DNA of 63,435 nt, the filler included. It is 4 parts of 4 records of this genome, joined end to end, with 100 filler letters (N's around TTAATTAATTAA, not from the genome) between each part and the next. Parts side by side here need not be neighbours in the genome. Positions count along the whole stretch, not along the records: positions 10,650 to 32,464 come from SRR31156797_28074; 3 more parts are not named here. One strand, written 5' to 3'. Below are positions 13,910-56,594 of the stretch, piece by piece; the first letter of the stretch is position 1, and each line of letters opens with the position of its first letter. A model generated the notes under the pieces. It saw only the letters and a list, made by a program, of their open reading frames with translations. It did no database searches and was not told where the DNA came from. The position numbers and the translations under genes are program-made.

Positions 13910-14851
13910 TTAACGGATTACCCTTCTATTGTATAAATCATATCGCTGACCTGCTTTGAGCAAATAAAACTTCCTGCTCCCTTTAGGTAATCGTGTTATT
14001 TTGCCTTCCACATGACTCCAGTCGTCTTTGTCACGGACTTCTTTATAAAATGTGCCATCATATACGGCCACATAGCTTTCACCCAAAACCTCAAATTCAT
14101 TTCCATGCACCATTATGGCTGTATTTTCATCCAGTCCAAGCCCGAGCATTCCGGGATTTGCATCAAGAATTTCAAAAATATCAAACTGCCTGTTCATGGC
14201 CAGCAGATGCTGGTCAATGGCCGTATTTGTGATAAACCCGAATCCTTCTTCATGATCTCCCATCATTACAGTATTGGTTTTGGTATCGCCCCGAACCAGG
14301 TAACCGGCCTGAATGCTTGCTCCTGCCGAACTTCCACCAATCACTCCTCCCCTCTTAAGCAGTGCCTGAAAGGCATCATAGGTTTTGGTTCCGGCATAAG
14401 CATCAACCAACCGCCACTGACGGCCACCCAAAAACCAAACAGCGTTGGCGTTTTTTATAGGATTGATGAATACTTCAGAATCAGCAATCTTACGATCACG
14501 GGTATGCGAAAAGCTGAAGTTTGTAAAACCATAGCCGTGAAAACGCTTTTCCTGATCGTGATAGAAAGCATCATTTTCAAGTTCAGCATCAGTTCTTGCA
14601 GTAGAAACAATGACCAGGGAAGCCTCCGGGCCACCTGCAAGTTCCATAAATTTTTCAAAAACAGATGTATCATTCAGACTTCCTCCTGCGACAATCAGAT
14701 AACCGTTTTCCGGGCCTGTTGAATGTGAATGATAAGCATTGTGCTTTTTTTCTAGAGGGTTACAACCCGAAATCAGCAAAACAGTAAGTGTTATAATTGG
14801 AAATGAGAAATTGAAAAAACAGTTAAACTGGTGTCGTTTAGTTGAATCCAT
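13910..14851 (-). CDS. Cyanophycinase / peptidase S51 family lipoprotein
   Basis: WFLGGRQWRL, GGSSAGA nucleophile, IDQH, GLDENTA; lipobox LISGC. Confidence 0.85.
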   Translation of the reverse strand: MDSTKRHQFNCFFNFSFPIITLTVLLISGCNPLEKKHNAYHSHSTGPENGYLIVAGGSLNDTSVFEKFMELAGGPEASLVIVSTARTDAELENDAFYHDQEKRFHGYGFTNFSFSHTRDRKIADSEVFINPIKNANAVWFLGGRQWRLVDAYAGTKTYDAFQALLKRGGVIGGSSAGASIQAGYLVRGDTKTNTVMMGDHEEGFGFITNTAIDQHLLAMNRQFDIFEILDANPGMLGLGLDENTAIMVHGNEFEVLGESYVAVYDGTFYKEVRDKDDWSHVEGKITRLPKGSRKFYLLKAGQRYDLYNRRVIR

Positions 14852-14967
14852 ACGCTAACATTTTACTACAAATGTATCAAGATTTTAACGTGAAAACACA
14901 TAGATTTTGCCCGACAACAACAAATGATTGGTTTGTTTTTTTTATTTTTGAAAACAAAAACAAAATT

Positions 14968-17109
14968 ATGAAACCGCGTATCTATGGTCTCCCTGCCATT
15001 ATTGCATTTTATCTGTTCACGCTTTTACCGCAATTTACCCTTGCGCAAAGTCTAAATGAATCTCCGTTTTATTATCTCTCACCCTTACCTGGCGCAAAGA
15101 TGATAAGGCCTGAAAATGGCATCATATTAAAAACCCATGCTGAAATCCTGCCTGAAAAAATAAACTCCGGTATTTCGATTAAAGGATCAACATCAGGACA
15201 GATTGATTTTGAGTTAAAAATATTGAGAGATGAAAATGCCATCCTCATCAGGCCATTGCGACATTTTAAGTACAACGAAGCAATTACGGTGTCAGTCGGT
15301 AATGCCATTTTCAAATCTTCATTGATCAAAAAGCCCATTGAGTATGTTTTTTACACCATGAAACATCCAGTGGATGTAAAATATAATCCAGAAGAACTTC
15401 GGATAGAAAATGCGCCCACAAATACTGACCACAATATTTCGGACAGCCTGATTGCAGCATACGATCTGCCGGCTGATTTCCCGGAGTATGAAATCACACA
15501 AAAAACAAATCCCTCATCCGGGTATTTCTTTTTTGCACCCCTGAAATGGGAAGGCAACGCCCACTATATTTTGATTATGGATAATGAAGGATTTCCGGTA
15601 TTCTACAGGAAAAACCCCGGCGCATGCTATGATTTCAAGGCACAAAACAACCTTGAACTGTCTTACTATCTGGCTACCGAACAAAAGTTTGTCCGGCTTG
15701 ATCATCGGTTCGACCAGATCGGCTTTTGGGAAATGCGCAACGGATACGCAACCGACCTGCACGAATGCAACCGGCAGATTAATAGTATTTGGATGCTCGG
15801 ATATGACCCGCAACTTGTGGATATGGATACCGTTGTTGAGGGCGGCCAGCCTGGTGCTGTCGTTACCGGACTGATCGTACAAGAGCAGGATAACCTGGGC
15901 AATGTGATTTTCCAGTGGCGCAGCTGGGATCACTATGAAATCACTGATGCATCTCCATGGGTAGACCTCACGGCTGCAACAATAGATTATGTTCATGGCA
16001 ACACCATTGAAATTGTGGACGAAAATTCCATCCTGATCTCCTGCCGTAACATGAACGAGATCACCAAAATAGACCGCAACAATGGAGAAATCATTTGGAG
16101 AATGGGCGGCCCGGCATGCAAAAACAACATGTTTACTTTTATCAATGACAGTCTACAGTTCCGAATGCAACACGATGTCCGCTACCATCCTCTGGATATG
16201 ATCACTGTTTATAACAACGGAAATGGTAATCAGCCGGACCCATATTCCTCGCCAATTATGTACGGAATTATTGAGGATAGCCTGGAAGTGTTTGAAATCA
16301 GGCGGTATCACAATGATCCTGAAGTCTATGGAGACATCATGGGAAATTTCCAGTACCATCTTCCTTCCCGAAACTTCGTTACCGGCTGGGGTCGTCCGCA
16401 CAACAACATTGTGATGACAGAATTTACATATCTTGGAGAACCTGTAATGCAGGTTAAAATGCCTTACACAGTTTACAGATCTTTCAAGTTCGACTGGGAA
16501 ACGAGCATATTAGTTAAAAGTACCGATACGCTGGATTTCGGAGATATTTATTACAAGGACTCGCTTTACATGAGTTTCTCAATTACCAATGACAACTGGC
16601 GTAACATCGAAATAAATGGATTACATTTGCATGGAAACAATTTTTTTCTTTTAGGTCAATCATCGCTACCGATTATCATTGAATCCCAGGAACAAAGAAC
16701 TTTTGGAGTATGGTTCAAACCAAAAGAACCAGGTGATCACAACGATATTTTATCACTGTATGAAGACATCGAAAACGACAGCGTTACTCAACGAATCGCC
16801 TGCCAGGTAAAGTTAGTTGGTTCTGCACGTGATAGCGAAGGCACCTATGAATCGGAGTCAGAAATTTTCAGCATCGCCCCTAATCCGGGCAATGGAATTT
16901 TCAACATTGAAATATCCGGCAGGCATTTGCCTGTAACAATATCTACGTATAGTGCCAGTGGCAATTTATTGCAATCCAAACAATATGATCATTCAGATAA
17001 TCTGCACATTGACCTGAATAAATACCCAGATGGCATTTTTTATGTGAGCCTTTTTGTTCACCAAACAAAAATCCATCAAACTCAAAAAGTGATAAAAATA
17101 TCCGATTAA
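14968..17109 (+). CDS. Arylsulfotransferase (ASST) family protein with Ig-like domains and T9SS C-terminal domain
   Basis: DLHE, VIFQWRSWDH, DYVHGN, ISCRN, IIWRMGG, QHD, YRSFKF; IAPNPGNG...KVIK tail; start at MKPR with TATTTTTG just upstream. Confidence 0.85.
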   Translation: MKPRIYGLPAIIAFYLFTLLPQFTLAQSLNESPFYYLSPLPGAKMIRPENGIILKTHAEILPEKINSGISIKGSTSGQIDFELKILRDENAILIRPLRHFKYNEAITVSVGNAIFKSSLIKKPIEYVFYTMKHPVDVKYNPEELRIENAPTNTDHNISDSLIAAYDLPADFPEYEITQKTNPSSGYFFFAPLKWEGNAHYILIMDNEGFPVFYRKNPGACYDFKAQNNLELSYYLATEQKFVRLDHRFDQIGFWEMRNGYATDLHECNRQINSIWMLGYDPQLVDMDTVVEGGQPGAVVTGLIVQEQDNLGNVIFQWRSWDHYEITDASPWVDLTAATIDYVHGNTIEIVDENSILISCRNMNEITKIDRNNGEIIWRMGGPACKNNMFTFINDSLQFRMQHDVRYHPLDMITVYNNGNGNQPDPYSSPIMYGIIEDSLEVFEIRRYHNDPEVYGDIMGNFQYHLPSRNFVTGWGRPHNNIVMTEFTYLGEPVMQVKMPYTVYRSFKFDWETSILVKSTDTLDFGDIYYKDSLYMSFSITNDNWRNIEINGLHLHGNNFFLLGQSSLPIIIESQEQRTFGVWFKPKEPGDHNDILSLYEDIENDSVTQRIACQVKLVGSARDSEGTYESESEIFSIAPNPGNGIFNIEISGRHLPVTISTYSASGNLLQSKQYDHSDNLHIDLNKYPDGIFYVSLFVHQTKIHQTQKVIKISD

Positions 17110-17123: not shown

Positions 17124-18503
17124 ATGAAACAAAAGCTGAAGACCTTTTCCAATTTTGTAAAAGAGCTTATGCCCGCCGAGATCGACTATCTCGCTTCGGT
17201 GGCGCAGTTTCAGGATGAAACGAATCTTGAAATCTTCAGCAGGGTCAGGAAATTCAGAGATACAGGAAAACTCAGCTTTGATCCGGAAATTGATAAACGA
17301 AAATACACTTACCTGAAAAAGTGGATATCAGACAAACTTGCCAGGGCGGATGTGGATATCATGCTCTCAAAATTGCTTACGCTTGAAAAAAAAGTTTTAA
17401 CAGATCAGCTACTCCCGGGTGACGAAAAACAAATACTCGACCTTACAAAAGATCAAGGCAGGTTACCATTCTATTTTATGCGTACTTATGAGCTGATTCG
17501 CGATTTCAGATCGTTTTTGCTTATAAGGCTTAGACACCAGTATTTGGAAAAAGCAAATAAATATCTGGATCAACATCGTGACGATTATGAAAAGTCAAGG
17601 CGGGTTTTTAATCAGCTCGAAACAGCTACACAGGAAATTACACAGCAGTATTTCAGCCCTGACGACAAACCCAAGGATTGGGAAAATTTTTTAAAGCAGG
17701 TGTTTTTTGATGATGCCCTCGATGGACAAAACCGCTACCTTGCTATAGTAAGGCTCAGTTTCCTGTACTACAACTATAATCAGCTTGATAAAATTGAAAG
17801 CCTGTACGATCATCTCGATGCACAGTTTGCTTCGGGCATGTATTATTCACGGCGGATTCTGGCAAATTACTATTCCAACCGGCTTATTCTTCATGCACGA
17901 TTGAATCAACTCGAAACGGCAGAAAAATTCGGTTGGTTATCCGTCAAAGATCGTGGGAGCGATTACATCCATTATCTCAACAACCTGGGATCGATCTTAT
18001 TAAGACAGAAAAAAAACAAAGAAGCACTATCACTGGCACAAAAATCCATTCCTGAATTAAAAAAAACAATGAGCTATCATAACCGGGTTGGCTTTGCATC
18101 ACTGCTGATTAAAACACTAAATGCCAACGGCAAGGCTGCAGAAGGCGAAAGTTATGGAAAAACATTTTTCACGGCCTATCGCGACAAAGTGCTGGAATAC
18201 CGGTGGCACAGCTTTTTCTCTTCGTGGCTGCAGTCGATGATTATGCAGGAAAAATACAATGAAGTTTTGACCATTAGTCGCAGGTACAATATCATGGAGC
18301 TGGAAGATAAATACAGTAAACGCCCTGGTTACCTCCCTACAATTTCGTGGTACTATTTTTTGGCAAAATATAAGACAGGCAAAGTTGAGCTTTCTCAAAT
18401 CCTGAAACAATTCACGGATTTCACGGCAAAAAATCCGGACCTGCATGGATTGAAAGAACTTAATACTGAGATATCCAACCATATTCCACAGTTTGGAAAA
18501 TAG
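17124..18503 (+). CDS. Hypothetical all-helical (TPR-like) cytoplasmic protein
   Basis: 459 aa, no signal or TM segment; TPR-like helices such as YLNNLGSILLRQKKNKEALSLA. Confidence 0.7.
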   Translation: MKQKLKTFSNFVKELMPAEIDYLASVAQFQDETNLEIFSRVRKFRDTGKLSFDPEIDKRKYTYLKKWISDKLARADVDIMLSKLLTLEKKVLTDQLLPGDEKQILDLTKDQGRLPFYFMRTYELIRDFRSFLLIRLRHQYLEKANKYLDQHRDDYEKSRRVFNQLETATQEITQQYFSPDDKPKDWENFLKQVFFDDALDGQNRYLAIVRLSFLYYNYNQLDKIESLYDHLDAQFASGMYYSRRILANYYSNRLILHARLNQLETAEKFGWLSVKDRGSDYIHYLNNLGSILLRQKKNKEALSLAQKSIPELKKTMSYHNRVGFASLLIKTLNANGKAAEGESYGKTFFTAYRDKVLEYRWHSFFSSWLQSMIMQEKYNEVLTISRRYNIMELEDKYSKRPGYLPTISWYYFLAKYKTGKVELSQILKQFTDFTAKNPDLHGLKELNTEISNHIPQFGK

Positions 18504-18671: not shown

Positions 18672-19415
18672 ATGTTTCACTTTAAAGAAAAGGTAGCCAT
18701 CATTACCGGTGGTGCGGATGGAATTGGAAAATCCACTGCAATTAAATTTGCTGAAGCAGGAGCAATTGTAGCTATCTGGGATATACAAACAGAAAAGGGA
18801 GAAGTCCTTGCAAAATCGATAAACGAAAATGGAGGTACAGCCGAATTTTTCTTTGTTGACACAACCCAATTCAGCGAAGTAGAGGAAGCTACCAAAGAAG
18901 TTTTCACTAAATACCAGACCATTGATTTCCTGATCAATAATGCCGGAATTACCCGTGATGCATCATTCAAAAAAATGACAACCGAACAATGGCAACAAGT
19001 GATTGATGTAAATCTTACAGGCGTTTTTAACTGTACAAAGGCGATTGCCCCCGTGATGTTGGAAAAAGGTTTTGGGAAAATTGTGAATGCATCTTCGGTT
19101 GTGGGGCTTTACGGAAACTTTGGACAAACCAATTATGTGGCCACCAAAGCAGGCATCATCGGGATGACAAAAACATGGGCACGTGAGTTTGGAAGAAAAG
19201 GCATCAATGTAAATGCGGTTGCTCCGGGTTTTACCATGACAGAAATGGTTGCTAAAATGCCTGAAAATGTACTGGAAGGCATGAAGGCAAAAGTTCCGCT
19301 TGGCAGGCTTGCTAAGCCAGAGGAAATGGCAGACGCATACCTGTTTCTGTGTTCAGAATACGCCTCCTACATTAACGGCCACACACTAAGTGTAGATGGC
19401 GGGATGACAGTGTAG
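18672..19415 (+). CDS. FabG/PhaB-like 3-oxoacyl-(ACP/CoA) reductase
   Basis: TGGADGIG, NNAGITRD, GNFGQTNYVATK, VNAVAPGF; start at MFHF. Confidence 0.9.
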   Translation: MFHFKEKVAIITGGADGIGKSTAIKFAEAGAIVAIWDIQTEKGEVLAKSINENGGTAEFFFVDTTQFSEVEEATKEVFTKYQTIDFLINNAGITRDASFKKMTTEQWQQVIDVNLTGVFNCTKAIAPVMLEKGFGKIVNASSVVGLYGNFGQTNYVATKAGIIGMTKTWAREFGRKGINVNAVAPGFTMTEMVAKMPENVLEGMKAKVPLGRLAKPEEMADAYLFLCSEYASYINGHTLSVDGGMTV

Positions 19416-19516
19416 GCAGGATATCCGATGTCAGATATTTGATGTTTGATAATATTTAAAGCGTAATGCACGAATAATTAATTCAACAACAAGTAACCCA
19501 TTAACAAACACCCCCA

Positions 19517-20506
19517 ATGCGAAACGCTATCATTCATTCAACCGGATCATACGTCCCGGAGCGGGTAATCCCCAACAGCTATTTCAACGAACTGCTTGGG
19601 GAAGATGTAGACAGCTGGCTCAGGGAAAATGTTGAAATATTTGAACGCAGGTGGTGCAGCGAAAACGAATCCGTTGCCGACCTGGTCATCCAGGCTGCCA
19701 ATCGGGCTTTAGAAGCCGGAAATGTCAATCCTGAGGAAATCGACCTGTTGATTATCTCCACCGACACACCGGAATACATTTCACCTTCAACAGCATCGAA
19801 GGTTCAGTACAAAATGGGCATGACAAATGCCGGCTCCTTTGATGTAAACACCGCCTGTGCAGGATTCGTTACAGCCCTCGACATGGGGGCCAAATATATC
19901 CGGGGAGACGAAAATTACAATACCGTGATGGTGGTTGGGGCGTATGCCATGAGCAAATACCTCAACATGACCAATAAAAATACGGTAACCCTTTTTGCCG
20001 ATGGTGCCGGAGCTTTCATCCTCAAGGCTGAAGAAAACTCAGACCGCGGATATCTGGCTAGCCAGTTGATCACAAAAGGGCAGTATTACGATTACATGGG
20101 TATTTATGCCGGTGGAACCAATCAGCCTATAACAGATGAAGTGGTGGCAGAAAAAGGACACCTGCTTCGGTTTGTAAAGAAATTCCCCAAAACACTGAAT
20201 GCTGAAATGTGGTCGATGATGAGCCGCACGCTGTGCGACAGGATCGGGATAACCCCTGATGATGTAAACCACTTTTTCCTGACGCAAATCAACATCAACA
20301 GCATAAGGGCCACTATGGACATCCTGGAACAACCGCATGAAAAAGCGCAGACCAGTATGCACTATTATGGTTACACAGGGTCGGCATGTGTGCCGCTGGC
20401 CTTTCAGGACAGGCTGGAAGCCGGAAAAATAAAACGGGGGGATACCATGTTTTTTATCGGTTCGGGTGGAGGATTGGCATTTGCCAGTGCAGCTTTTAGG
20501 TTTTGA
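19517..20506 (+). CDS. Non-canonical ketoacyl synthase III (FabH-fold) enzyme
   Basis: GSYVPERVIPN, NTAC114AGF, LFADGAGA, GSGGGL; FabH His/Asn positions read LT256QIN and GY286TGSA. Confidence 0.9.
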   Translation: MRNAIIHSTGSYVPERVIPNSYFNELLGEDVDSWLRENVEIFERRWCSENESVADLVIQAANRALEAGNVNPEEIDLLIISTDTPEYISPSTASKVQYKMGMTNAGSFDVNTACAGFVTALDMGAKYIRGDENYNTVMVVGAYAMSKYLNMTNKNTVTLFADGAGAFILKAEENSDRGYLASQLITKGQYYDYMGIYAGGTNQPITDEVVAEKGHLLRFVKKFPKTLNAEMWSMMSRTLCDRIGITPDDVNHFFLTQININSIRATMDILEQPHEKAQTSMHYYGYTGSACVPLAFQDRLEAGKIKRGDTMFFIGSGGGLAFASAAFRF

Positions 20507-20690
20507 GCGCAGAACGCAAAGAGCATAGCGCAAAGTGCCAGGCGCAGGAACAGCCGGATTCTTTACGCACCTCAGGATCGTTAAATAAATAGGATGGCAA
20601 AGAATCCACAACGCAAAGCAAATAACTCAGTAACTTTATAACTTAATACCTTCATAACTCATTAACTATTAACAAATAACAAACCTCACT

Positions 20691-22259
20691 TTGGCAACAC
20701 AGGCACAGGTAATAGGAACTTGGATTTTGATCGGGCTTTATGCAGCCCTGATCATTTGGTTTGTGATCAGAGGTGCACTCAAGATCAAGAATATTTCTGA
20801 TTACGCCGTTGGAAACATCAGTTTTTCGCCGGTGGCAGTCGGATTGTCGCTGGCTGCTTCCATGACCAGCGCGGCAACTTTTGTAATCAACCCCGGGTTT
20901 ATCGCCAATTTCGGGCTGGCAGCATTTATTTCCTTTGGTTTGGTGTTTCCGCTGGGAGCCATCATCTCGCTGATCATCCTCACCAAAAACTTCCGCAGGT
21001 ATGGTGAATCAGTGAAAGCACTCACGCTGGCACAGTGGATTGGCAAACGTTACAACAGCAAGGGATATGCACTTTTCATGGCTTTTCTTTCGCTGTTACT
21101 GATCACCTTTATTGTGCTGATCGTGGTTGCCATCACCAAGGTTTTATCCAAGTCACTCAACATTGACGAAGTCTATATCCTTGGCGGATTGATCATTTTT
21201 GTTTTTGGCTACATGATGTTTGGCGGGGCCAACTCGATGGTTTACACCAATACCATCCAGGCGGCCATCATGCTGGTGGTTGCGGTTATTTTACTGACTT
21301 CAGGATTTGAGCATTTCAGTCAGGGTATCAGTGGTTTTTTTGACAAACTTGCGTCTATCGATCCACAGCTTTCAAAATCTACCTACCCGGCAAGTCCCCT
21401 TTTCAGGGATTTTTATGAAATTTTCTTTGCACAGTTTATTGTTGGAATAGCCGTGGTTGTGCAGCCGCATATCATCACCAAATCGCTTTTATTGAAAAAA
21501 GAAAGTGATGTCAACCGTTTCCTGTTGGTTGCCACAATAGTTGAAATTCTCTTTTTCCTGGTTGTTCTAACCGGCTTTTATGCAAGGTTAAAATTCCCTG
21601 ATTTAATTGCGGGCGGAGAGGCTTTGAAAAATGACGGGATTATTCCAGCTTATGTGGTTTCGGTTTTTGCCAACAGCAACCTGGCGGTGTTCATTGGGCT
21701 AATCGTGGTCCTTGGATTGATTTCAGCAGGTATGTCCACACTTGAAGGGTTGATCCAGTCCGTTTCTACAACCATCACATCGGATATCATTCAGCCGCTT
21801 TTTGGTTCAAAAATCCAAACCGAAAGAACCTACATCACGATCAATAAAGTTTCGATTGTCTTGCTGGCCGTCGTCACCTTCTTTGTGGCCATTGAACAAA
21901 TCATCAATCCAAAACTCAGTGTGGCAATCCTGGCACAGAATGGTGTTTACGCCTACTTTTCCGCAGCATTTATTCCGGTGATTTTCGGGATTTTCCTTAA
22001 ACAAACAAAAATGCATGCACCACTTTGGGCAACCATAATCGCCATCATTGTCCATTTTGGAATTTATTACTTTTTACCGTGGCTGGTGAATAATTTTGGC
22101 TGGAATTTTGGATGGTTCACCACCTACTTAAAAGGCACGATCAGAAACCCGGCCATTGCGGCATCATCGGCAATACTGGTTTCATCGGCAGTGGGCATCA
22201 TCATTTATTTACTGGGATCTAAACAAAAATCAAATGCATATAGCAGAAAAACACTATGA
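20691..22259 (+). CDS. Sodium:solute symporter (SSS family)
   Basis: Many TM helices, SAATF, QPHI, ISAGMST; TTG start. Confidence 0.9.
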   Translation: MATQAQVIGTWILIGLYAALIIWFVIRGALKIKNISDYAVGNISFSPVAVGLSLAASMTSAATFVINPGFIANFGLAAFISFGLVFPLGAIISLIILTKNFRRYGESVKALTLAQWIGKRYNSKGYALFMAFLSLLLITFIVLIVVAITKVLSKSLNIDEVYILGGLIIFVFGYMMFGGANSMVYTNTIQAAIMLVVAVILLTSGFEHFSQGISGFFDKLASIDPQLSKSTYPASPLFRDFYEIFFAQFIVGIAVVVQPHIITKSLLLKKESDVNRFLLVATIVEILFFLVVLTGFYARLKFPDLIAGGEALKNDGIIPAYVVSVFANSNLAVFIGLIVVLGLISAGMSTLEGLIQSVSTTITSDIIQPLFGSKIQTERTYITINKVSIVLLAVVTFFVAIEQIINPKLSVAILAQNGVYAYFSAAFIPVIFGIFLKQTKMHAPLWATIIAIIVHFGIYYFLPWLVNNFGWNFGWFTTYLKGTIRNPAIAASSAILVSSAVGIIIYLLGSKQKSNAYSRKTL

Positions 22260-23767
22260 ATACTTTCGACTGGTTTGAAAAATGGGCTACCTACAATCCG
22301 TTTAAAACTGCTTTCAAGGAGTTTGAAACCGGCCGACAATACAGTTATTCCCAGTTTGACAAACTTGGAAACCACCTGGCCGGAATCCTGAAAAATGAAC
22401 ATGGATTAACCAAAGGCGACCGGCTTGCGGTAATCTCCGAGTATTGCATCGAGTACATCGTGTTGTTTGCAGTAGCCCAGAAAACCGGGATTATACTCGT
22501 CCCGCTGAATTTTCGCCTGAGCCCGTCCGAACTTGATTTCATCATCGGTAATGCGGATGTAAAGAGCATTGTTTACGATGAAAAATTCCTGGAAAAGATC
22601 AGTGAACTTAAATCTTTCAAAGCGATTTCACTGAAAATGTCGATGGATGAGTTGGCACAATTGAACGATTCATGCATCAGGGAAAACAAAATCTACAAAC
22701 CTGCAAAAGCCATCCTTCAACCTGAAGATCCGCTGTTCATCCTTTATACTTCCGGCACAACCGCTTTTCCAAAAGGTGCCATTTACACACACAAAATGCT
22801 TTTCTGGAACAGCATCAACACCGAATTGCGCCTGAATATTACCTCACAGGATGTATCGCTGAATTGTGCCCCACCCTTCCACACCGGGGGCTGGAATGTA
22901 TTGTTAACCCCTTTTATACATCACGGGGCCTACACCCAACTCATAAAAAGTTTTGATCCCGACCTGGTACTCGAAATGCTCGATCTGGAACATGCTACAT
23001 TATGGTGGGCCGTACCCACGATGCTAAAAATGATGGCAGAATCACCAATATTTGATAAAGTAAAACTTAGCCGGCTCAGGTACCTGATCGTTGGCGGCGA
23101 AGCCATGCCGGTTCCGCTCATCGAAAAATGGCACGAAAAGGGTGTACTGATTCGTCAGGGTTATGGCCTCACCGAAGTTGGGCCAAATGTTACATCCCTT
23201 GACCACCAGGATGCCACACGCAAAAAGGGCTCAATCGGTACCCTGAATTTTTATTACGATGCGAAACTCGTAGATGAAAAAAATAACGAAGTTGACAGCG
23301 GTGAAGCCGGTGAATTTATACTTTCAGGGCCAACCGTTACGCCTGGTTACTGGCGAAATAAAAAGGAAACTGTTAACACGATTGTAGATGGTTGGTTCCA
23401 CACCGGCGACCTGATGATCAAGGATAAAGATGGTTTTTATTTTGTAGTTGACCGTATTAAAAACATGTACATTTCAGGTGGTGAAAATGTGTATCCCGCC
23501 GAGGTAGAGCATATCATTTCGAAACACCCATACGTTAACGATGTTGCCATAGTGGGTGTGCCGGATGAAAAATGGGGAGAAACAGGGAAGGCTTTCATTG
23601 TTTTGGAACCCGGCACATCACTTACCGAAAAAGAAATAATTGATTATTGCCTGGCAAAACTGGCTAAGTACAAAGTTCCGAAACACATTGAATTTATGGA
23701 AGAATTACCACACAATGATGCCGGAAAAATTGACAGAAAAAAACTCAAAAAAATAGAACTAAAATGA
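22256..23767 (+). CDS. Acyl-CoA synthetase (AMP-binding, FadD/MenE-like)
   Basis: YTSGTTAFPKG, GYGLTE, WFHTGD, ISGGENVYPAEVE, AGKID; ATG overlaps the SSS stop. Confidence 0.93.
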   Translation: MNTFDWFEKWATYNPFKTAFKEFETGRQYSYSQFDKLGNHLAGILKNEHGLTKGDRLAVISEYCIEYIVLFAVAQKTGIILVPLNFRLSPSELDFIIGNADVKSIVYDEKFLEKISELKSFKAISLKMSMDELAQLNDSCIRENKIYKPAKAILQPEDPLFILYTSGTTAFPKGAIYTHKMLFWNSINTELRLNITSQDVSLNCAPPFHTGGWNVLLTPFIHHGAYTQLIKSFDPDLVLEMLDLEHATLWWAVPTMLKMMAESPIFDKVKLSRLRYLIVGGEAMPVPLIEKWHEKGVLIRQGYGLTEVGPNVTSLDHQDATRKKGSIGTLNFYYDAKLVDEKNNEVDSGEAGEFILSGPTVTPGYWRNKKETVNTIVDGWFHTGDLMIKDKDGFYFVVDRIKNMYISGGENVYPAEVEHIISKHPYVNDVAIVGVPDEKWGETGKAFIVLEPGTSLTEKEIIDYCLAKLAKYKVPKHIEFMEELPHNDAGKIDRKKLKKIELK

Positions 23768-23854
23768 TATTGCCTGACACATTTTTGATACGTATTTTTG
23801 TATAATAACATATTCACTAAACTTCAATATTTATAAATCAAAACTTTTAAAATT

Positions 23855-24685
23855 ATGAGAACAGTAAAATTGTTAACACTGCTAATTGCAGCTTTCACAC
23901 TTACATTCGTTGCCTGTAATGACGACGATGACGACAACCCATCCCTGGCTGTAGAAATTACCGACATCCAGATCTCGGATGACAACCAAACCGTAACGAT
24001 TACTTTTAACCAGGCTGTTTACAAAAACAACGACATGACAGGTAACATAGATGCCAACAGCTTTGCCCTTACATTCGTAGCCACAAACCCGGTAAATGCG
24101 CAATTTTCGGCTGCACACACTGCCGGTGAAGAGGTGGTAACCCTGACCATCGTTTACAACGACCGCGTTGACGGCAACGAAGTACTTGATGTAACTGCAA
24201 AATCAGGAACATTCTTCGGTGCTGAGGGCAATAGCGTGGATGCTGACCTTACTGAATCAGTTGAAGTAAACGAACTTGGAATTATCGGCAAATGGTCAGC
24301 TTACGACATTTCCTTCATTCTGCAATCAACCGGTTTCGATGATTCATTGTTTGCCAATTTCTATGCTGACCAAAGCTATATGGTAACTGCCTTCCAGGGC
24401 GGAACTGCCATTGCTTTTGAAGGCTCCTATGAAATGGAAAAAAGCGAGTTTGACGATATCTGGGATATTACACTAAACCAGTCCTCACCATCAGCACTGA
24501 TCAGTGAGGGTATCTTTAAGGTATTCCCGGCTGCTCAGGACTCGATGTGGTACGAGGTTGCCCAGGTTGACCCTGCTATTGCCGGCGTTACGCCTCCAAC
24601 AGCTGAACAAGGCTTTGGAAGTACCAGTAGCGGCGCATTTGGTACAGGCAACGTTCAGAAGTATTATTGGGTAGGACAAGAATAA
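23855..24685 (+). CDS. Acidic surface lipoprotein (Ig-like plus beta-rich domain)
   Basis: Lipobox FVAC followed by NDDDDD; TATTTTTG promoter-like element at 23793-23800. Confidence 0.8.
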   Translation: MRTVKLLTLLIAAFTLTFVACNDDDDDNPSLAVEITDIQISDDNQTVTITFNQAVYKNNDMTGNIDANSFALTFVATNPVNAQFSAAHTAGEEVVTLTIVYNDRVDGNEVLDVTAKSGTFFGAEGNSVDADLTESVEVNELGIIGKWSAYDISFILQSTGFDDSLFANFYADQSYMVTAFQGGTAIAFEGSYEMEKSEFDDIWDITLNQSSPSALISEGIFKVFPAAQDSMWYEVAQVDPAIAGVTPPTAEQGFGSTSSGAFGTGNVQKYYWVGQE

Positions 24686-24699
24686 AGTAATTTGAATTC

Positions 24700-24732
24700 A
24701 TACGGGCAGGCCTGTCGCCTGCCTGTATTTTT
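24700..24732 (+). terminator. Intra-cluster hairpin with U tract
   Basis: ATACGGGCAGGC-CTGTC-GCCTGCCTGTAT-TTTT. Confidence 0.6.
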
Positions 24733-24756
24733 CAATTTCCAACCAAATTCAATATT

Positions 24757-26373
24757 ATGAAACACATTTTACGATTCATCTTTCCGGTAACCCTTTTCCT
24801 GTTTTGTACCTTTGGTAGCCTGGCACAGGATCTGAATTCAAGCATGACGAGTAATTACGTCAGCTATTTTGAGAAACAGGTTCCGCGAAAAGCAAACAAG
24901 GAATTTCAGTTCATCGCCTATTTCATAAACCAGGGTGTGAGTTCCAATTTTTATCCTGAAAATGTGTTCATGAAAGGCCAGGTAATTGGCCGTTTATTTG
25001 GCGACAATACCACGCGGACCAGCGACACGGCTACCAATTTTTATTTCGAGCAACGGATCATTCCTTTTTTCATTTACCAACCCAAGCTTTTTAACGGTAA
25101 AGCCACTTTGCGGGCCTCCTTTGAGATCGATTGGACATGGGGTGATCAGTCATACGGAACCGGCGGAAACCTGGGTGGTGCCATATCATCCGACCAGGTG
25201 AACCTGCAAACGCAAAACATTGTGGTAGAATACAGGCCTGCTCCGGGGTGGTTTATCAACCTTGGAATGCAGCGGCTATTCGACACACCTTACGACACTT
25301 ACCGCACATTTTTTGATAAAATGGCTACCACTGGTTATCGCCTTGCTTATTGGGGTACCGATGCCGTTGGTATCCGGATTCACAGGGCCAAGGACTTTTC
25401 AAGATGGACTTTCGGCTATTTCCAGCTTTATGAAAACAACATTGAAGAAAACGACGATGTTACCCTGCAATTTGCCTCATATGAAGGTGACCTTACACCT
25501 CTCTGGAAAATTGGTGGTTCGGTGTATTACCTGCGAGATCGCGGAAACGGCGAGGGCGGCATCTCAATTTATGGACAGGGTCTCAACAGCCGGCTAACCC
25601 AATACAACGGAACTTTCAGGTTTAATTTCGAGGACGATTACAAAGCTGATATTGTATGGCTGGGATCGTTCTTTAGCAGAAATGCTGATTTTATGATGGA
25701 CAGGTTCAGGCTTACCGGGTTTGCCAATTACAACATCGGAAAAGCAAAAGTTAAAAGTGGCAACAGCTTTACCACAGGAGCCGACATTGGCGGCCTTGGA
25801 GCAAACTTTCGTTTGGGTTATCGCTACGGACAAACCACAGATGATGTTTTTAGTGCCGGCGTGATATTCGCCACCGGCGATGATAATAAACTGGATGATA
25901 AAAAATACTCCGGCGTAATAACGGGCAACACCTGGGGGGCACCTGCAGGAATTTACATTACTTCCGGCAGCTACATTCTTTTCCCACATGGAAATGTTGT
26001 TAACCGTTTTACCCCGCTGGTTGCTGACCTTTCCAATATGGGCTATGGCCTTCTGGGAGGTGCCGTTAATGCCAGCCATGCCATTGTACCTTACAGACTT
26101 ACCGGAAAAATTGGAACTGCATGGGCCAAAAGCAACGTTAAACCATCAGGCGGAGGAACCAGTATGGGACTTGAAATGAACGCTTCCCTGAGCTACCAGA
26201 TTGGTGTTTATATGAGCCTTGAAATGCACGGTGCTTATGTTTGGTTGGGCGATTTTTACGATAGCAACGACAATTCCTACAGTTATTACGTAAATGGAAA
26301 CACTGAACCCGGACTCCCCAAACCATCCAACCCATGGACTGCTTTCCTGGTTTTTAAATGGCTGATGTTTTAA
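24757..26373 (+). CDS. Putative outer-membrane beta-barrel (porin-like) protein
   Basis: Signal peptide (SLA-Q), amphipathic aromatic/Gly-rich strands, C-terminal FKWLMF; 538 aa, no obvious TonB plug. Confidence 0.75.
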   Translation: MKHILRFIFPVTLFLFCTFGSLAQDLNSSMTSNYVSYFEKQVPRKANKEFQFIAYFINQGVSSNFYPENVFMKGQVIGRLFGDNTTRTSDTATNFYFEQRIIPFFIYQPKLFNGKATLRASFEIDWTWGDQSYGTGGNLGGAISSDQVNLQTQNIVVEYRPAPGWFINLGMQRLFDTPYDTYRTFFDKMATTGYRLAYWGTDAVGIRIHRAKDFSRWTFGYFQLYENNIEENDDVTLQFASYEGDLTPLWKIGGSVYYLRDRGNGEGGISIYGQGLNSRLTQYNGTFRFNFEDDYKADIVWLGSFFSRNADFMMDRFRLTGFANYNIGKAKVKSGNSFTTGADIGGLGANFRLGYRYGQTTDDVFSAGVIFATGDDNKLDDKKYSGVITGNTWGAPAGIYITSGSYILFPHGNVVNRFTPLVADLSNMGYGLLGGAVNASHAIVPYRLTGKIGTAWAKSNVKPSGGGTSMGLEMNASLSYQIGVYMSLEMHGAYVWLGDFYDSNDNSYSYYVNGNTEPGLPKPSNPWTAFLVFKWLMF

Positions 26374-26385
26374 CCCTTTAAAGTA

Positions 26386-27387
26386 ATGATGATGAAAAAC
26401 ACAATTAAAAAAAATTCATTTGCACCAGTCTTGTTTCTCACACTGGTTGTATTTTTATTAAACATCAACATGAGCCACTCCCAAAACAGCCTGAATCCTT
26501 ACCGGGATACACCACCATTAAAATCGATGCGCGATCTGCAATACCCTTTTGAAGTTAAATATCTGCAGGTGAATGATGACATCAACCTGGCCTATGTTGA
26601 TGAAGGAAGCGGCGACCAGACCATCATTTTCATTCACGGATTGGGCAGTTACCTCAAAGCATGGCACAAAAACATCAATGGCTTAAAAGACAAATATCGT
26701 TGCATAGCCATCGACCTGCCGGGATATGGGAAATCTTCCAAGAAGCCACATACAGGCCAAATGTCGTTTTATGCTAAAGTAGTAAGCCAGTTTATTGATC
26801 AGTTGAAACTGGAAAACGTTGTGTTGGCCGGCCATTCCATGGGTGGACAAATCTCCATGATGGCAGCGATAAATTATCCGGATAAAATCTATAAACTAAT
26901 ACTGGCCGACCCTGCAGGATTTGAATCGTTTACAGAAGGCCAGAAGCAGTGGTTCCGCGATGTAATGACCACTGATGGCGTGATGAAAACAACGGTAGAA
27001 CAAATCCAGACCAACCTGGCTTATAATTTTTACAATGTACCTGATGACGCAGAGTTTATGATTACGGATCGCATTGCCATGCGCTTTGCTGGCGATTTCG
27101 AAAACTATTGCTACAATGTTGTTCAGTCGGTTCACGGTATGGTGGATGAACCTGTGATCGACATCCTGGATCAGATCAAACAGCCTACACTGATTATTTT
27201 TGGGGAAAATGACAACCTGATCCCAAACCGGTTTTTAAATCCTGGGAAAACGATAAACATTGCCAAAATCGGGGATGAGGAAATTCCGAACAGTAAGTTG
27301 GTAATCATTCCAAAGGCAGGGCACTTTGTACAATTCGAAAAATCCGAGGAATTTAATCAAGCAGTTGAGTCATTTTTAGGTAAGTAA
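26386..27387 (+). CDS. Exported alpha/beta hydrolase (esterase-like)
   Basis: Signal peptide, FIHGLG, DLPGYGKS, GHSMGG, GENDNL, AGHF. Confidence 0.9.
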   Translation: MMMKNTIKKNSFAPVLFLTLVVFLLNINMSHSQNSLNPYRDTPPLKSMRDLQYPFEVKYLQVNDDINLAYVDEGSGDQTIIFIHGLGSYLKAWHKNINGLKDKYRCIAIDLPGYGKSSKKPHTGQMSFYAKVVSQFIDQLKLENVVLAGHSMGGQISMMAAINYPDKIYKLILADPAGFESFTEGQKQWFRDVMTTDGVMKTTVEQIQTNLAYNFYNVPDDAEFMITDRIAMRFAGDFENYCYNVVQSVHGMVDEPVIDILDQIKQPTLIIFGENDNLIPNRFLNPGKTINIAKIGDEEIPNSKLVIIPKAGHFVQFEKSEEFNQAVESFLGK

Positions 27388-36487: not shown

Positions 36488-36599
36488 GATATTTCCTCCT
36501 AACTTGATAATACGTTGTGGCGTAACTGACGCAGGGGACCTCACAGCATGGATACGGCCCCTGGCTTTTTTTTCGCCTCGGTACATATATGCAACAACC

Positions 36600-44089: not shown

Positions 44090-44532
44090 GCGCAGTCCTT
44101 CACACCGTTGAGCGCTAAAGAAAGACACAAATCGGCTGCAGTCTCAACCGTATCTGCGGTGTACTCCCCTTCAACACCTACAAGCAGTATTTCTTCCGGT
44201 AATTCGCCCTCGCAGACATTGGGAAGCACTGAAAGTAAATAGGGCAAACCCGCCTCATGTCCGAAATGCTTCTGTGAGAGTGTGGCTATAATGTCTTTAG
44301 CCGATAATATTACAACCTCTCCAAGAGCACCTATATCTTGGACCGCATCGACAAAAACAACCCTTCCTCCCTGCTCCAGAAAAGACAATAGGTTTAGACC
44401 GCCTATCCCACCTTCAACGATATCTATTTCGGTTTCAAAAGGTTGCATCGCCTTTAACCTGTCGTAAACAGCAAGACCAACAGAATCATCAGCAATGAAA
44501 CGATTGCCGATACAGATTATAAAACGCTTCAT
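44086..44532 (-). CDS. Hydrogenase maturation endopeptidase (HupD/HycI family)
   Basis: IGNRFIADDSVG, VEGG..GL, VFVDAV, GHEAGL. Confidence 0.92.
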   Translation of the reverse strand: MKRFIICIGNRFIADDSVGLAVYDRLKAMQPFETEIDIVEGGIGGLNLLSFLEQGGRVVFVDAVQDIGALGEVVILSAKDIIATLSQKHFGHEAGLPYLLSVLPNVCEGELPEEILLVGVEGEYTADTVETAADLCLSLALNGVKDCA

Positions 44533-44535
44533 CTT

Positions 44536-46080: not shown

Positions 46081-46102
46081 GCCGCCCTTTGTCGTGTTCA
46101 GT

Positions 46103-56504: not shown

Positions 56505-56552
56505 AATTTTTGACAGCTTGATTGAGAATAATTGCTGAGTATAGAAACAGCC

Positions 56553-56594
56553 GCTCCCGTTACCTGCTCATTATCAGGTAGCGGGAGCTTTTTT
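56553..56594 (+). terminator. Intrinsic terminator between convergent genes
   Basis: GCTCCCGTTACCTG...CAGGTAGCGGGAGC-TTTTTT. Confidence 0.75.

Follow-up and report, generated by a model that had tools for sequence, protein, structure and literature searches.

A Conserved Gene Cluster of Bacteroidota

Seven genes at positions 18672–27387 of the analyzed window, a stretch of DNA of 63,435 nucleotides, were found to form one conserved unit together with an upstream gene for a TPR-like protein, and this unit is carried by many Bacteroidota. It is probably an ACP-independent operon by which the cell acquires a nutrient, namely an ester-linked carboxylic acid; an (R)-3-hydroxy acid is the likeliest candidate. 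The original prediction had described a system for the uptake and catabolism of an acyl ester. The unit itself, the uptake, the export of the hydrolase, the group of the SDR and the lack of an ACP were supported, while the assignment of the cleaving enzyme and of the substrate was not. No description of such an arrangement had been known, and none was found in a literature search.

The cluster is located on SRR31156797_28074, which comprises positions 10,650–32,464. As predicted, all seven ORFs are co-oriented on the plus strand. The gaps between the genes are 101, 184, −4, 87, 71, and 12 bases in order, the negative value being a 4-base overlap of the start of the ligase gene with the end of the SSF gene. 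None of the gaps is large enough to hold an ACP gene, and genes for FabF, a dehydratase, an exporter or a SusC/D pair, which had likewise been reported to be missing, are not present within the cluster. Pfam and NCBIfam profile searches confirmed the proposed families for five of the seven gene products, and the proposed 538-aa barrel is supported by an AF2 model and its Foldseek matches.

Conservation was analyzed in 36 loci that had been identified by means of the KSIII-like protein (first set) and in 14 loci of a phylum sample that is independent of this set. The full set was defined as the SDR, the KSIII-like protein, an inner-membrane carrier, the ligase, the exported hydrolase, and an outer-membrane component. 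It was complete in 29/36 and 12/14 loci, respectively, showing that the genes also co-occur elsewhere and that their grouping is far beyond chance. The lineages with the full set in the first set include Lentimicrobiaceae, Ignavibacteria, Saprospiraceae, Ekhidna, Flagellimonas, and Maribacter. The gene order varies among lineages, and several orders were observed. Of the 301 Bacteroidota genomes sampled, 43 contained an ortholog.

The extent of the cluster had been predicted correctly for the seven genes, but the eighth member had been missed, namely the upstream gene at positions 17124–18503 (plus strand). It encodes a cytoplasmic TPR-like protein of 459 aa with weak Pfam matches to TPR_10/TPR_12, without a signal peptide and without an NCBIfam family. 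The Protein Atlas yielded only Bacteroidota TPR clusters, none of them with a Pfam family. An ortholog adjoins the SDR gene or lies within the cluster in 18/36 first-set loci and 1/14 loci of the phylum sample. Loci that are devoid of this gene have a gene for a MarR-like or LytTR-type regulator at the cluster edge, and MarR-like regulators flank the cluster in 12/14 sampled loci. It is possible that the TPR-like protein is a ligand-sensing regulator.

Enzymes Encoded in the Cluster

The first of the seven genes (18672–19415, plus strand) encodes a classical SDR of 247 aa (adh_short_C2, 227 bits), which was found in 31/36 and 13/14 loci. The ATG at 18672 yields the same length as in the orthologs; a TTG at 18639 is likewise open. 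The scores with the FabG equivalog models of NCBIfam were just short of the cut-offs (291.1 versus 296 and 290.9 versus 297.75), and there was no match to the 3-beta-HSD family (PF01073). The top solved relatives were 4nbu (286 bits), 4nbw (276 bits), 2et6 (265 bits), and 4nbv (263 bits). According to its description, 4NBU is the NAD-bound FabG from Bacillus sp. SG-1; 2et6 is a (3R)-hydroxyacyl-CoA dehydrogenase. Strand beta2 ends in the Asp (IVAIWD) from which a preference for NAD had been predicted. In agreement with that prediction, this residue aligns with an Asp in 4nbu, 4nbw, 4nbv, and each of the two SDR domains of 2et6. This supports a placement in the NAD-binding FabG/(3R)-hydroxyacyl-CoA dehydrogenase group, and the enzyme is probably an NAD-preferring (3R)-hydroxyacyl-CoA dehydrogenase, which would act on CoA esters and not on free acids. 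As the scores fall so little short of the FabG models, the sequence would also allow the enzyme to work reductively.

The next gene (19517–20506, plus strand) encodes a KSIII(FabH)-fold enzyme (ACP_syn_III, 86 bits; ACP_syn_III_C, 81 bits), which scored 221.7 with TIGR00747, below the cut-off of 292.1. It had been called atypical, and HMMER alignments to solved FabH structures verified this. The catalytic set Cys-His-Asn is replaced by Cys114-Thr256-Tyr286, so that only the Cys is retained; compared with 8vd9 and 1zow, Thr is at the His site, Tyr at the Asn site, and Asn at the Arg of the HQANxR motif. Cys and Thr were invariant in all 36 relatives and Tyr in all 35 whose contig is not cut, and the motif was retained in 13/14 sampled loci, one of which has Ser in place of Thr. 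Across the family, the position of the HQANxR Arg is occupied by Asn, His or Leu, and 17 substitutions are family-specific in comparison with the five canonical FabHs of carrier genomes. A canonical FabH is encoded elsewhere in five of five carriers. The enzyme is predicted to be non-decarboxylative, as the residues for decarboxylation are absent. Canonical thiolases were present in all five carrier genomes tested, and a canonical thiolase gene adjoins the cluster in 6/36 loci and is beside or near it in 2/14 loci. Because all five carriers have ordinary thiolases, C-C cleavage need not fall to the KSIII-like enzyme, to which it had been ascribed.

The ligase gene (22256–23767, plus strand) encodes an AMP-forming acyl-CoA ligase of 503 aa (AMP-binding, 256 bits; AMP-binding_C, 77 bits), which was found in 33/36 and 13/14 loci and which its sequence assigns to the ANL family. 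The best NCBIfam matches were all below the cut-offs, e.g., PRK06187 with 437.9 versus 476. The nearest solved relatives were 8weu/8wev (314 bits), one sequence that was deposited both as a fatty-acyl-CoA (8weu) and as a feruloyl-CoA synthetase (8wev), followed by FadD13 (280 bits).

The last gene (26386–27387, plus strand) encodes an alpha/beta-fold Ser-hydrolase of 333 aa (Abhydrolase_1, 124 bits) with both a GHSMGG motif and an N-terminal signal-like segment. The latter was found in 31 of 32 family members, several of which have a lipobox Cys, and the motif in 29 of 32, which corroborates the proposed exported GHSMG hydrolase. The hydrolase was present in 30/36 and 12/14 loci. It did not reach the cut-off of any NCBIfam family, and all solved relatives were distant (4f0j, 92 bits; meta-cleavage-product hydrolases, about 85 bits; the PHB depolymerase 8ynv, 76 bits, limited to residues 54–188). 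In two loci (L030 and L043), the cluster encodes a further alpha/beta hydrolase that is devoid of a signal-like N-terminus, and an ORF of matching size and position is present in L052. This further hydrolase of L030 and L043 suggests that the ester may persist after import in some lineages.

Membrane Components and Direction of Transport

The inner-membrane carrier (20691–22259, plus strand, 522 aa) belongs to the sodium:solute symporter family (SSF; PF00474, 137 bits). Its NCBIfam scores were each below the respective cut-off (TIGR00813, 120.9; PanF, 90.4), and no solved relative was found at E ≤ 0.001. The symporter was present in 32/36 and 10/14 loci, and an MFS carrier stands in for it in 3/14 loci.

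The 538-aa protein (24757–26373, plus strand) has a signal peptide and a C-terminal Phe and no family match in Pfam or NCBIfam. An AF2 model, which was generated from 14 sequences and is of medium confidence (mean pLDDT 61.5; strand blocks mostly 70–86, loops low), contained 18 strands. The best Foldseek match was AlgE (3rbh, E 6e-19, TM 0.51/0.66), followed, at E 1e-12 to 1e-9, by MOMP and the OccD/OccK/OprD porins, and the nearest Atlas cluster carries the name "Alginate export domain-containing protein." The model thus predicts an outer-membrane 18-strand channel with an AlgE/OprD-like fold. AlgE is an exporter, whereas the OprD/Occ channels are carboxylate uptake channels.

In the lipoprotein (23855–24685, plus strand, 276 aa), NDDDDD comes directly after the lipobox Cys (Cys21). 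An AF2 model (mean pLDDT 84.1) contained an Ig-like domain at about residues 31–139 and a lipocalin-like beta-barrel domain at residues 140–276. An acidic run after the lipobox Cys is the export signal for lipoproteins in Bacteroidota. The gene thus named a lipoprotein gene was confirmed as such, while surface exposure of its product is suggested by this acidic run. Residues 31–139 were aligned with the SbsC Ig domain using VIA-align (Z 11.1, rmsd 2.6, 97 aligned). Residues 140–276 matched APCDD1 (Z 9.9, rmsd 2.8, 115 aligned) and, with an rmsd of 3.2 each, Tp0751 (Z 9.5, 104 aligned) and a lipocalin of Bacteroides ovatus, 4gzv (Z 9.4, 98 aligned); these Z values are only modestly above the background quoted by the alignment tool. 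The C-terminal domain is homologous to lipoproteins of 164–219 aa that are encoded directly upstream of the barrel elsewhere (BLASTP E 3e-25 and 1e-09), which was also seen in alignment A2. As in the window, a lipoprotein gene of this family lies ahead of the barrel gene in 12 of the 13 first-set loci that have a barrel.

The barrel and lipoprotein pair was present in 13/36 and 6/14 loci, and a Plug/TonB-dependent receptor in 18/36 and 6/14 loci. The barrel and the receptor never occurred in one locus, i.e., they were mutually exclusive in both sets. Because both membrane steps have been exchanged for unrelated parts in relatives, a TonB-dependent receptor and an MFS carrier, respectively, import is favored over export, as had been proposed. 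The export signal of the hydrolase, the uptake channels among the fold matches of the barrel, and the lipocalin-like domain of the lipoprotein point the same way.

Alternative Functions and Proposed Pathway

The lack of room for an ACP, the altered residues of the KSIII-like enzyme, the separate FabH, and the lack of PhaC_N in all five carriers argue against fatty acid or PHA synthesis. A further biosynthetic route appears very improbable, in which an Ole/beta-lactone-like compound or another lipid or secondary metabolite would leave the cell via the barrel. OleA, OleC, OleD, and OleB belong to the same four superfamilies as the enzymes of the cluster (thiolase-fold enzyme, ligase, SDR, and alpha/beta hydrolase), and AlgE, the top fold match, exports. 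However, an importer is found in place of the barrel in the 18/36 and 6/14 receptor loci, symporter-type carriers (SSF, MFS) are constant members, and the hydrolase is exported. Furthermore, the KSIII-like protein matched FabH with 4e-46 versus about E 1e-17 for 3row, 3s21, and 4kti, which we take to be OleA chains, the SDR is of the classical FabG type without a PF01073 match, and ACP, PKS, NRPS or efflux genes are absent. It is unlikely that the imported acid is salvaged as a CoA ester for the cell's own lipids, with the KSIII-like enzyme as acyl-CoA:ACP or acyl-CoA:acceptor transacylase and the SDR working reductively. In favor of this reading, the KSIII-like enzyme retains the fold of FabH and the Cys that accepts the acyl group, the SDR reaches 291 bits versus the FabG cut-off of 296, and the uptake modules suit scavenging no less than catabolism. 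Yet the SDR has the NAD-type Asp, the Arg of HQANxR, which is needed for ACP docking in FabH, is changed to Asn, His or Leu, and the recurrent extra neighbors are thiolase genes and neither ACP nor other lipid-synthesis genes.

An equally doubtful alternative is the uptake and degradation of aromatic, hydroxycinnamate-type esters, with the hydrolase as feruloyl/cinnamoyl esterase, the ligase as feruloyl-CoA synthetase, and a beta-oxidative shortening of the side chain by the SDR and the KSIII-like enzyme. MarR regulators are known for hydroxycinnamate genes and MarR-like ones flank most sampled loci, the fold of the barrel is similar to that of OccK/OpdK channels, among them one solved with vanillate, and a hydrophobic aromatic ligand would suit the lipocalin domain. 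The deposition of 8wev points in the same direction, but that of the identical 8weu does not, nor does FadD13 as the next relative, and the SDR is nearest to aliphatic (3R)-hydroxyacyl-CoA and acetoacetyl-CoA enzymes. In addition, the hydration of cinnamoyl-CoA requires an enoyl-CoA hydratase or a hydratase/lyase, and no family of either kind was recurrent in the 36 loci. The lack of a recurrent enoyl-CoA hydratase fits a substrate that is already 3-hydroxylated. As the best single guess, 3-hydroxybutyrate oligomers or other hydroxyalkanoates can be proposed tentatively. The PHB or 3HB substrate of the original prediction remains a guess. In the five carrier genomes, no clear extracellular PHB depolymerase (PF10503) was found; only two matches exceeded the cut-off (29 bits; 20.8 bits, or 29.3 with neighbors), both of them short and spanning 55–63 of 219 model positions each, and the cluster hydrolase did not match PF10503.

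For the favored acquisition of an ester-linked 3-hydroxy acid, we infer every step of the following path, including the reaction directions and the role of the KSIII-like enzyme, from families, conservation, signals, and motifs. Oxidative chemistry at the level of CoA esters is supported by the solved relatives of the SDR and their common Asp, by the ANL-family ligase, and by the thiolase genes next to some clusters. The lipid-anchored lipocalin-domain protein would bind an amphipathic substrate and pass it to the 18-strand channel, and in the periplasm the exported Ser-hydrolase would cut ester bonds. The SSF symporter, or the MFS carrier in some relatives, would then bring the acid or a short ester into the cytoplasm, and the AMP-forming ligase would form the CoA thioester. 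The NAD+-preferring SDR would then convert the 3-hydroxyacyl-CoA to the 3-oxoacyl-CoA, and the KSIII-fold enzyme may catalyze a covalent, non-decarboxylative acyl transfer or C-C cleavage on a CoA ester, using Cys114, Thr256, and Tyr286. The breakdown is perhaps finished by ordinary thiolases. The operon is probably controlled by the TPR-like protein, or by MarR/LytTR regulators in relatives, and in other lineages the TonB-dependent receptor would take over the capture and entry of the substrate.

The Gene Cluster and Its Surroundings

ORF calls and translation bore out the predicted row of seven co-oriented genes on the plus strand at 18672-27387, which encode a short-chain dehydrogenase (SDR), a KSIII-like enzyme, an SSF symporter, an acyl-CoA ligase, a lipoprotein, a 538-aa barrel protein and a hydrolase. 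The gaps between the genes are 101, 184, -4, 87, 71, and 12 bases long and thus leave no room for an ACP gene, the absence of which had been predicted correctly. With Pfam models, the SDR matched adh_short_C2 (227 bits), the KSIII-like protein ACP_syn_III (86 bits) and ACP_syn_III_C (81 bits), the symporter PF00474 (136.9 bits versus a gathering score of 22.8), and the hydrolase the alpha/beta hydrolase family (124 bits). The ligase matched AMP-binding (255.5 bits) and AMP-binding_C (76.9 bits), which characterizes it as an ANL acyl-CoA ligase. Among the NCBIfam models, the FabG equivalogs gave 291 bits for the SDR, slightly below their cut-offs of 296-298, the symporter reached no subfamily cut-off, and the ligase remained below every equivalog cut-off; its substrate is not assignable from these models. 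Its nearest solved relative is deposited as a feruloyl-/fatty-acyl-CoA synthetase, and the symporter had no match among the solved structures at E ≤ 0.001. With both model collections the lipoprotein yielded a sub-threshold Ig-like match only, and the 538-aa protein matched no Pfam family (E ≤ 0.01) and no NCBIfam family.

The cluster is flanked upstream by genes for an S51 peptidase and a T9SS-tailed arylsulfotransferase-like protein, and downstream, on the opposite strand, by MlaD-like, amidase and LptD-like genes. Both flanks are unrelated to the cluster. They are also common to the closest named relatives of the locus, which are Lentimicrobiaceae and Bacteroidales MAGs. A strong terminator-like hairpin with a 12-pair stem, including 7 G-C pairs, followed by TTTTCAATTT, was found at 24700-24728 (+) within the 71 bases that separate the lipoprotein gene from the barrel gene, and it could lead to different transcript levels of the two genes. 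A scan for sigma-70 promoters gave 19 sites versus 23.3 expected and is thus uninformative; the scanned consensus is not that of Bacteroidota promoters, which deviate from it.

Several further features of the window were recorded. The aconitase gene at 10650-12476 (+) covers residues 147-754 of the 755-aa ortholog of the related locus L003, and its match to the Pfam profile begins at position 124. It lacks the N-terminal part, and an ORF for a T9SS-tailed protein on the opposite strand abuts the gene; possible causes are truncation at the 5' end, rearrangement or a join made in assembly. The genes at 8429-10513 (-), 14842-17109 (+) and 34364-36586 (-) encode two proteins with T9SS C-terminal sorting domains, one of them arylsulfotransferase-like, and a C25 (gingipain-family) peptidase. 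At 41243-47038 (-) the genes for the small and large subunits of a NiFe hydrogenase adjoin those for a hybrid histidine kinase and a response-regulator diguanylate cyclase. The G+C content drops to 0.32-0.39 at 56000-62000, compared with about 0.44 elsewhere in the window, and this stretch contains TruD, AIR-synthase-related and EPSP-synthase-family genes.

Conservation of the Cluster as One Unit

A neighborhood search with one genome per species was seeded with the KSIII-like protein (gene at 19517-20506). This yielded 36 loci, which belong to Lentimicrobiaceae, other Bacteroidales, Ignavibacteria, Saprospiraceae/Lewinella, Ekhidna, Flagellimonas and Maribacter. According to tblastn the ligase was present in 33 of these, the symporter in 32, the SDR in 31, the hydrolase in 30, and the barrel in 13. 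The full set, defined as SDR, KSIII-like enzyme, carrier, ligase, hydrolase and an outer-membrane part, was found in 29 loci. Of the seven incomplete loci, L004, L014, L016 and L031 lie on contigs that stop at the cluster or close to it, L003 and L018 place the KSIII-like gene in a different context, and L029 contains a partial set.

In an independent sample of 301 evenly drawn Bacteroidota genomes, a KSIII-like ortholog was detected in 43 (E ≤ 1e-90), i.e., in about one in seven species. Fourteen of these 43 contexts, picked across the identity range with long contigs favored, were examined, and 12 contained the full set. One of the two exceptions is a contig that ends within the ligase gene, the other a 45%-identity outlier without the cluster. 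Co-occurrence of the genes elsewhere was thus verified in both samples. The gene order varies by lineage, e.g., SDR-KS-SSF-ligase-lipoprotein-barrel-hydrolase or SSF-hydrolase-receptor-(SDR)-KS-ligase, showing that the conservation is not the mere inheritance of a single block. Genome-level tests were performed with five carrier genomes reached via the loci, the closest to the window being G001, the genome of locus L001.

Two observations concern individual loci. The locus L025, assigned to a Vulcanococcus limneticus MAG, has the gene order of L022 from a Bacteroidia MAG, and its identities to the window proteins match as well; the contig in this cyanobacterial bin probably stems from an associated Bacteroidota organism. 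In the Flagellimonas loci L024, L027, L028, L031 and L034 a MerR/B12-binding regulator gene abuts the cluster downstream of the ligase gene. A gene of the flavin amine-oxidase family (phytoene-desaturase-like) abuts as well in all of them but L031, the contig of which is cut. These neighbors look like carotenoid genes, and their adjacency is probably coincidental.

The KSIII-like Enzyme Has an Altered Active Site

Annotations everywhere call the KSIII-like enzyme FabH, "ketoacyl-ACP synthase III". The enzyme shares with FabH/KAS III (EC 2.3.1.180; structures 8vd9, 1zow) the fold, the length, the two Pfam domains and the acyl-accepting Cys, and it matched solved FabH with E 4e-46. In contrast to FabH, the HMMER alignment with FabH structures revealed that, with Cys114 kept, Thr256 is found at the position of the catalytic His and Tyr286 at that of the Asn, and that the Arg of the HQANxR motif is replaced by Asn. 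The enzyme is encoded in an uptake operon and not in a fab cluster. It reached 221.7 bits with TIGR00747, below the cut-off of 292.1, and 244.6 bits with PRK09352, below 249.

The Cys and the Thr were invariant in all 36 relatives, and the Tyr in all 35 that cover it, one contig being cut. The Cys-Thr-Tyr motif was also kept in 13 of the 14 sampled loci, with Ser for Thr in one of these 13. Compared with the canonical FabHs of the five carriers, 17 positions are fixed differently, including two catalytic ones and S89 in place of a conserved Phe. All five carriers encode a canonical FabH elsewhere with 357-388 bits, above the TIGR00747 cut-off, versus 212-226 bits for their cluster orthologs. 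The conserved altered residues and the separate canonical FabH mean that the active site is a conserved and re-tooled one, and not that of a decayed FabH. Judged from the FabH mechanism, the enzyme cannot be expected to decarboxylate malonyl thioesters.

The original prediction had assigned the C-C cleavage to this enzyme. This is possible but not required, because canonical thiolases are encoded in all five carriers tested. Thiolase genes are located beside the cluster in 6/36 loci, and beside or near it in 2/14. In the Ignavibacteria-type loci L007, L008, L010 and L011 a second, different KSIII-like gene is situated between the ligase and lipoprotein genes (e.g., L007 14061-15083). It reached 450 bits with the NCBIfam model PRK06840 (cut-off 315), and its motifs are Cys/His/His-like, not Cys/Thr/Tyr, in the two of four copies covered by the alignment.

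Outer-Membrane Proteins and Carrier

The AF2 model of the barrel protein (24757-26373), based on an alignment of 14 sequences, has 18 strands and is of medium confidence, with a mean pLDDT of 61.5; the strand blocks are mostly at 70-86 and the loops are poor. The best structural match with Foldseek was AlgE (E 6e-19, TM 0.51/0.66), followed by C. jejuni MOMP and the OccD/OccK/OprD channels (E 1e-12 to 1e-9). The barrel's nearest neighbor in the Protein Atlas is the "Alginate export" cluster, in which 17% of the proteins carry PF13372; the barrel itself had no PF13372 match at E ≤ 0.01. The likeness to the AlgE/OprD/Occ porins thus lies in the monomeric 18-strand barrel. The identity is only about 13%, PF13372 is missing, a lipocalin-like lipoprotein is the partner, and the barrel is replaceable by a TonB-dependent importer. 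Furthermore, in contrast to the AlgE system, no alginate genes are present beside the window barrel.

The translated lipoprotein (23855-24685) contains a lipobox Cys21, which is followed by NDDDDD. Its AF2 model (pLDDT 84) consists of two domains. VIA-align matched the Ig-like domain to SbsC (Z 11.1, rmsd 2.6, 97 aligned). The C-terminal domain, residues 140-276, forms an eight-strand barrel in the model. Its lipocalin-type matches were APCDD1 (Z 9.9, rmsd 2.8, 115 aligned), Tp0751 (Z 9.5, rmsd 3.2, 104 aligned), the B. ovatus lipocalin 4gzv (Z 9.4, rmsd 3.2, 98 aligned) and 4qrl (Z 8.2, rmsd 2.6, 89 aligned), which agrees with a lipocalin-type barrel, although the Z scores are only modestly above the tool's background of 7-8. 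Foldseek recovered the Ig-like domain only, so that the lipocalin-like domain was seen with VIA-align alone. The C-terminal domain is homologous to lipoproteins of 164-219 aa that are encoded directly upstream of the barrel in the other loci of the barrel type (E 3e-25, 1e-09), indicating that the lipoprotein-barrel pair is conserved.

A Plug/TonB-dependent receptor was found by ORF clustering in 18 of the 36 loci, and never alongside the barrel. Likewise, an MFS carrier replaced the SSF symporter in 3/14 sampled loci. AlgE exports, whereas Occ channels import carboxylates, and a TonB-dependent receptor is an importer. Since such a receptor occupies the same step in other lineages, the outer-membrane step would have an import role. 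Taken together, two non-orthologous transporter displacements beside an unchanging set of enzymes are a strong argument for inward transport as part of the function of the cluster, and the predicted uptake role holds.

The cluster resembles SusC/SusD loci in that it combines a presumed surface lipoprotein and an outer-membrane transporter with a hydrolase of the periplasm, a carrier in the inner membrane and a linked regulator; moreover, the TonB-dependent receptor of relatives has a SusC-like CarboxypepD_reg N-terminal domain. In contrast to these loci, SusD and a glycoside hydrolase are missing, the transporter in the window is an AlgE/OprD-like 18-strand barrel that has no plug, its lipoprotein partner contains a lipocalin-like domain, and acyl-CoA chemistry makes up the cytoplasmic part. 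Pfam detected neither a SusC-type receptor nor a SusD lipoprotein in the window cluster, and the relatives with a TonB-dependent receptor have no recurring SusD-like neighbor. The putative lipid-anchored small-ligand binder and its outer-membrane channel can be regarded as a functional analog of SusD/SusC-type pairs, not as a homolog.

Cofactor and Kinship of the SDR

All classical SDR motifs are present in the translation (ITGGADGIG, NNAG, YVATK, IVAIWD). The top solved relatives were 4nbu (286 bits), 4nbw, 2et6 (265 bits) and 4nbv, within a range of 263-286 bits. 2et6 is the (3R)-hydroxyacyl-CoA dehydrogenase of yeast MFE-2. The alignment covers the full length of the NADH-dependent FabG homologs 4NBU, 4NBW and 4NBV, and most of each SDR domain of 2ET6; all of these proteins were studied outside any such operon. 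In classical SDRs a preference for NAD(H) is indicated when strand beta2 ends with an acidic residue. The Asp of IVAIWD, from which an NAD-type enzyme had been predicted, aligns with an Asp in all four relatives, and an NAD(H)-preferring SDR is thus well founded by homology. According to a figure legend of PMC5264612, 4NBU is the FabG from Bacillus sp. SG-1 with NAD bound, and Javidpour et al. (2014) is cited there for NADH-dependent FabG. With TIGR01829 the SDR reached 255.7 bits, below the cut-off of 302.1.

The Exported Hydrolase

A signal-like hydrophobic N-terminal segment was present in 31 of 32 members of the hydrolase family, some with a lipobox Cys, and GHSMGG in 29 of 32. The matches to 4f0j (92 bits) and to meta-cleavage-product hydrolases (about 85 bits) are distant and not diagnostic. 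A PHB depolymerase matched residues 54-188 only (76 bits), and the NCBIfam model for intracellular scl-PHA depolymerase gave 108 bits with partial coverage (cut-off 300). PF10503, the extracellular PHB depolymerase family, was absent among the 17 Pfam families matched by the hydrolase. The loci L030 and L043 contain second alpha/beta hydrolases without a signal-like N-terminus inside the cluster, a hint that in loci of this type the ester bond may persist after import; an ORF in L052 resembles them by size and position alone.

A Putative Regulatory Gene

Upstream of the SDR gene lies, as an eighth gene of the cluster, an ORF for a TPR-like protein of 459 aa (17124-18503), an ortholog of which is located beside the SDR gene or within the cluster in 18/36 and 1/14 loci. 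The protein has no signal peptide and no assigned family. In the Protein Atlas it belongs to unnamed Bacteroidota clusters, and RNPP-like HTH-TPR clusters were found at 0.84; the latter kinship is taken as a lead only. Loci without this gene carry other regulator genes at the cluster edge, i.e., a MarR-like gene in 5/36 (plus one ORF grouped by clustering only) and in 12/14 loci, or, in other loci, a LytTR response regulator gene with a neighboring long ORF. We infer that the TPR-like protein is probably a regulator.

Substrate and Possible Routes

The substrate is reasonably likely to be some ester-linked acid that is catabolized as its CoA ester. ORF clustering revealed no enoyl-CoA hydratase in any of the 36 loci, and the SDR is of the (3R)-hydroxyacyl type; therefore, a substrate that already carries an (R)-3-hydroxyl group would be the simplest fit. 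3-Hydroxybutyrate would be converted to two acetyl-CoA by the ligase, the SDR and a single thiolytic step, and nothing further would be needed. A crotonase gene at 55671-56504 was rejected as a member of the cluster, because it is 28 kb away and no crotonase recurs in the 36 loci. The original guess of PHB/3HB as the substrate found no clear support, and hydroxyalkanoate oligomers are a tentative and somewhat doubtful candidate. In the five carriers PF10503 yielded just two short matches above the cut-off (29 bits; 20.8 bits, or 29.3 with neighbors), which cover 55-63 of the 219 model positions, so that carriers living on PHB would depend on oligomers released by others. The label of the nearest solved ligase relative also counts against PHB. 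A role in PHA synthesis was rejected, because PhaC_N was found in 0/5 carriers, and the PhaB-like SDR would thus not serve this purpose.

The classical PHB/3HB route comprises an extracellular PhaZ, a 3HB-oligomer hydrolase, BdhA, acetoacetate activation and a PhaA-type thiolase. Common to both are extracytoplasmic ester hydrolysis, the uptake of a small hydroxy acid, the oxidation of the 3-hydroxyl group and the cleavage of a 3-oxoacyl-CoA to acetyl-CoA. In contrast, the cluster contains no PF10503 depolymerase domain, CoA activation would precede oxidation because the SDR is of the (3R)-hydroxyacyl-CoA/FabG type and not of the BdhA type, and the dedicated outer-membrane uptake parts and the KSIII-fold enzyme have no counterpart in the classical route.

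Catabolism of aromatic esters would agree with the feruloyl label of the ligase relative, the MarR-like regulators and the Occ-like barrel, but it is improbable in view of the missing hydratase. We also give little credence to a salvage of the imported acid into lipids with the KSIII-like enzyme as a transacylase: the SDR score is near the FabG cut-off, but the ACP-docking Arg is lost, the SDR has an NAD-type Asp, and thiolase genes are among the neighbors. The same four enzyme superfamilies, i.e., thiolase fold, ANL ligase, SDR and alpha/beta hydrolase, make up OleABCD. A biosynthesis of the Ole type or another one with export is highly improbable, as the importer swap, the export of the hydrolase and the family tests contradict it. 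In contrast to OleABCD, the SDR is of another class, the hydrolase is exported, and uptake transporters are integral to the cluster. The Ole-type function was rejected on the family tests, because the SDR, a classical one, had no Pfam match to PF01073 (3-beta-HSD), and because the KSIII-like enzyme is nearer to FabH (E 4e-46) than to the OleA structures (about E 1e-17).

Within the favored uptake and CoA-level catabolism, a bolder version can be formulated. The Cys-Thr-Tyr KSIII enzyme would catalyze a reaction new to its fold and, together with the front end (lipocalin and barrel, or TonB receptor), would constitute a widespread, undescribed route for the scavenging of storage-polyester fragments in Bacteroidota/Ignavibacteriota. 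We regard this as unlikely. The enzyme could act as a thiolase on a KSIII scaffold or, more daringly, use CoA to split the oxygen ester of an imported hydroxyalkanoate dimer-/oligomer-CoA by thiolysis. The latter would release hydroxyacyl-CoA units and save the ATP of repeated activation.

Biological Significance

Of the original interpretation, the uptake function, the lack of an ACP and an SDR of the NAD type have thus stood, while the substrate and the role given to the KSIII-like enzyme are conjectural. In the main texts of openly accessible papers, neither the operon nor a Cys-Thr-Tyr KSIII enzyme was found described. The combination of outer-membrane binder/transporter, periplasmic hydrolase, carrier and CoA-level catabolism is of a known kind. 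New are the AlgE/OprD-like barrel with a lipocalin partner, its interchange with a TonB-dependent receptor, and the re-tooled KSIII enzyme.

The operon occurs in about one in seven of the sampled Bacteroidota species (43/301) and in Ignavibacteria, and the existence of cultured carriers (Flagellimonas, Maribacter, Ekhidna) makes the question directly testable. If the proposed function is true, a systematic mis-annotation as FabH would be corrected, the thiolase superfamily would gain a new reaction type, and the known uptake systems would be extended by one that consists of an AlgE/OprD-like channel with a lipocalin lipoprotein and can be exchanged for a TonB-dependent receptor. In marine, sediment and wastewater communities the operon would then represent a turnover route for a pool of ester-linked carbon, which may be debris of polyhydroxyalkanoates.
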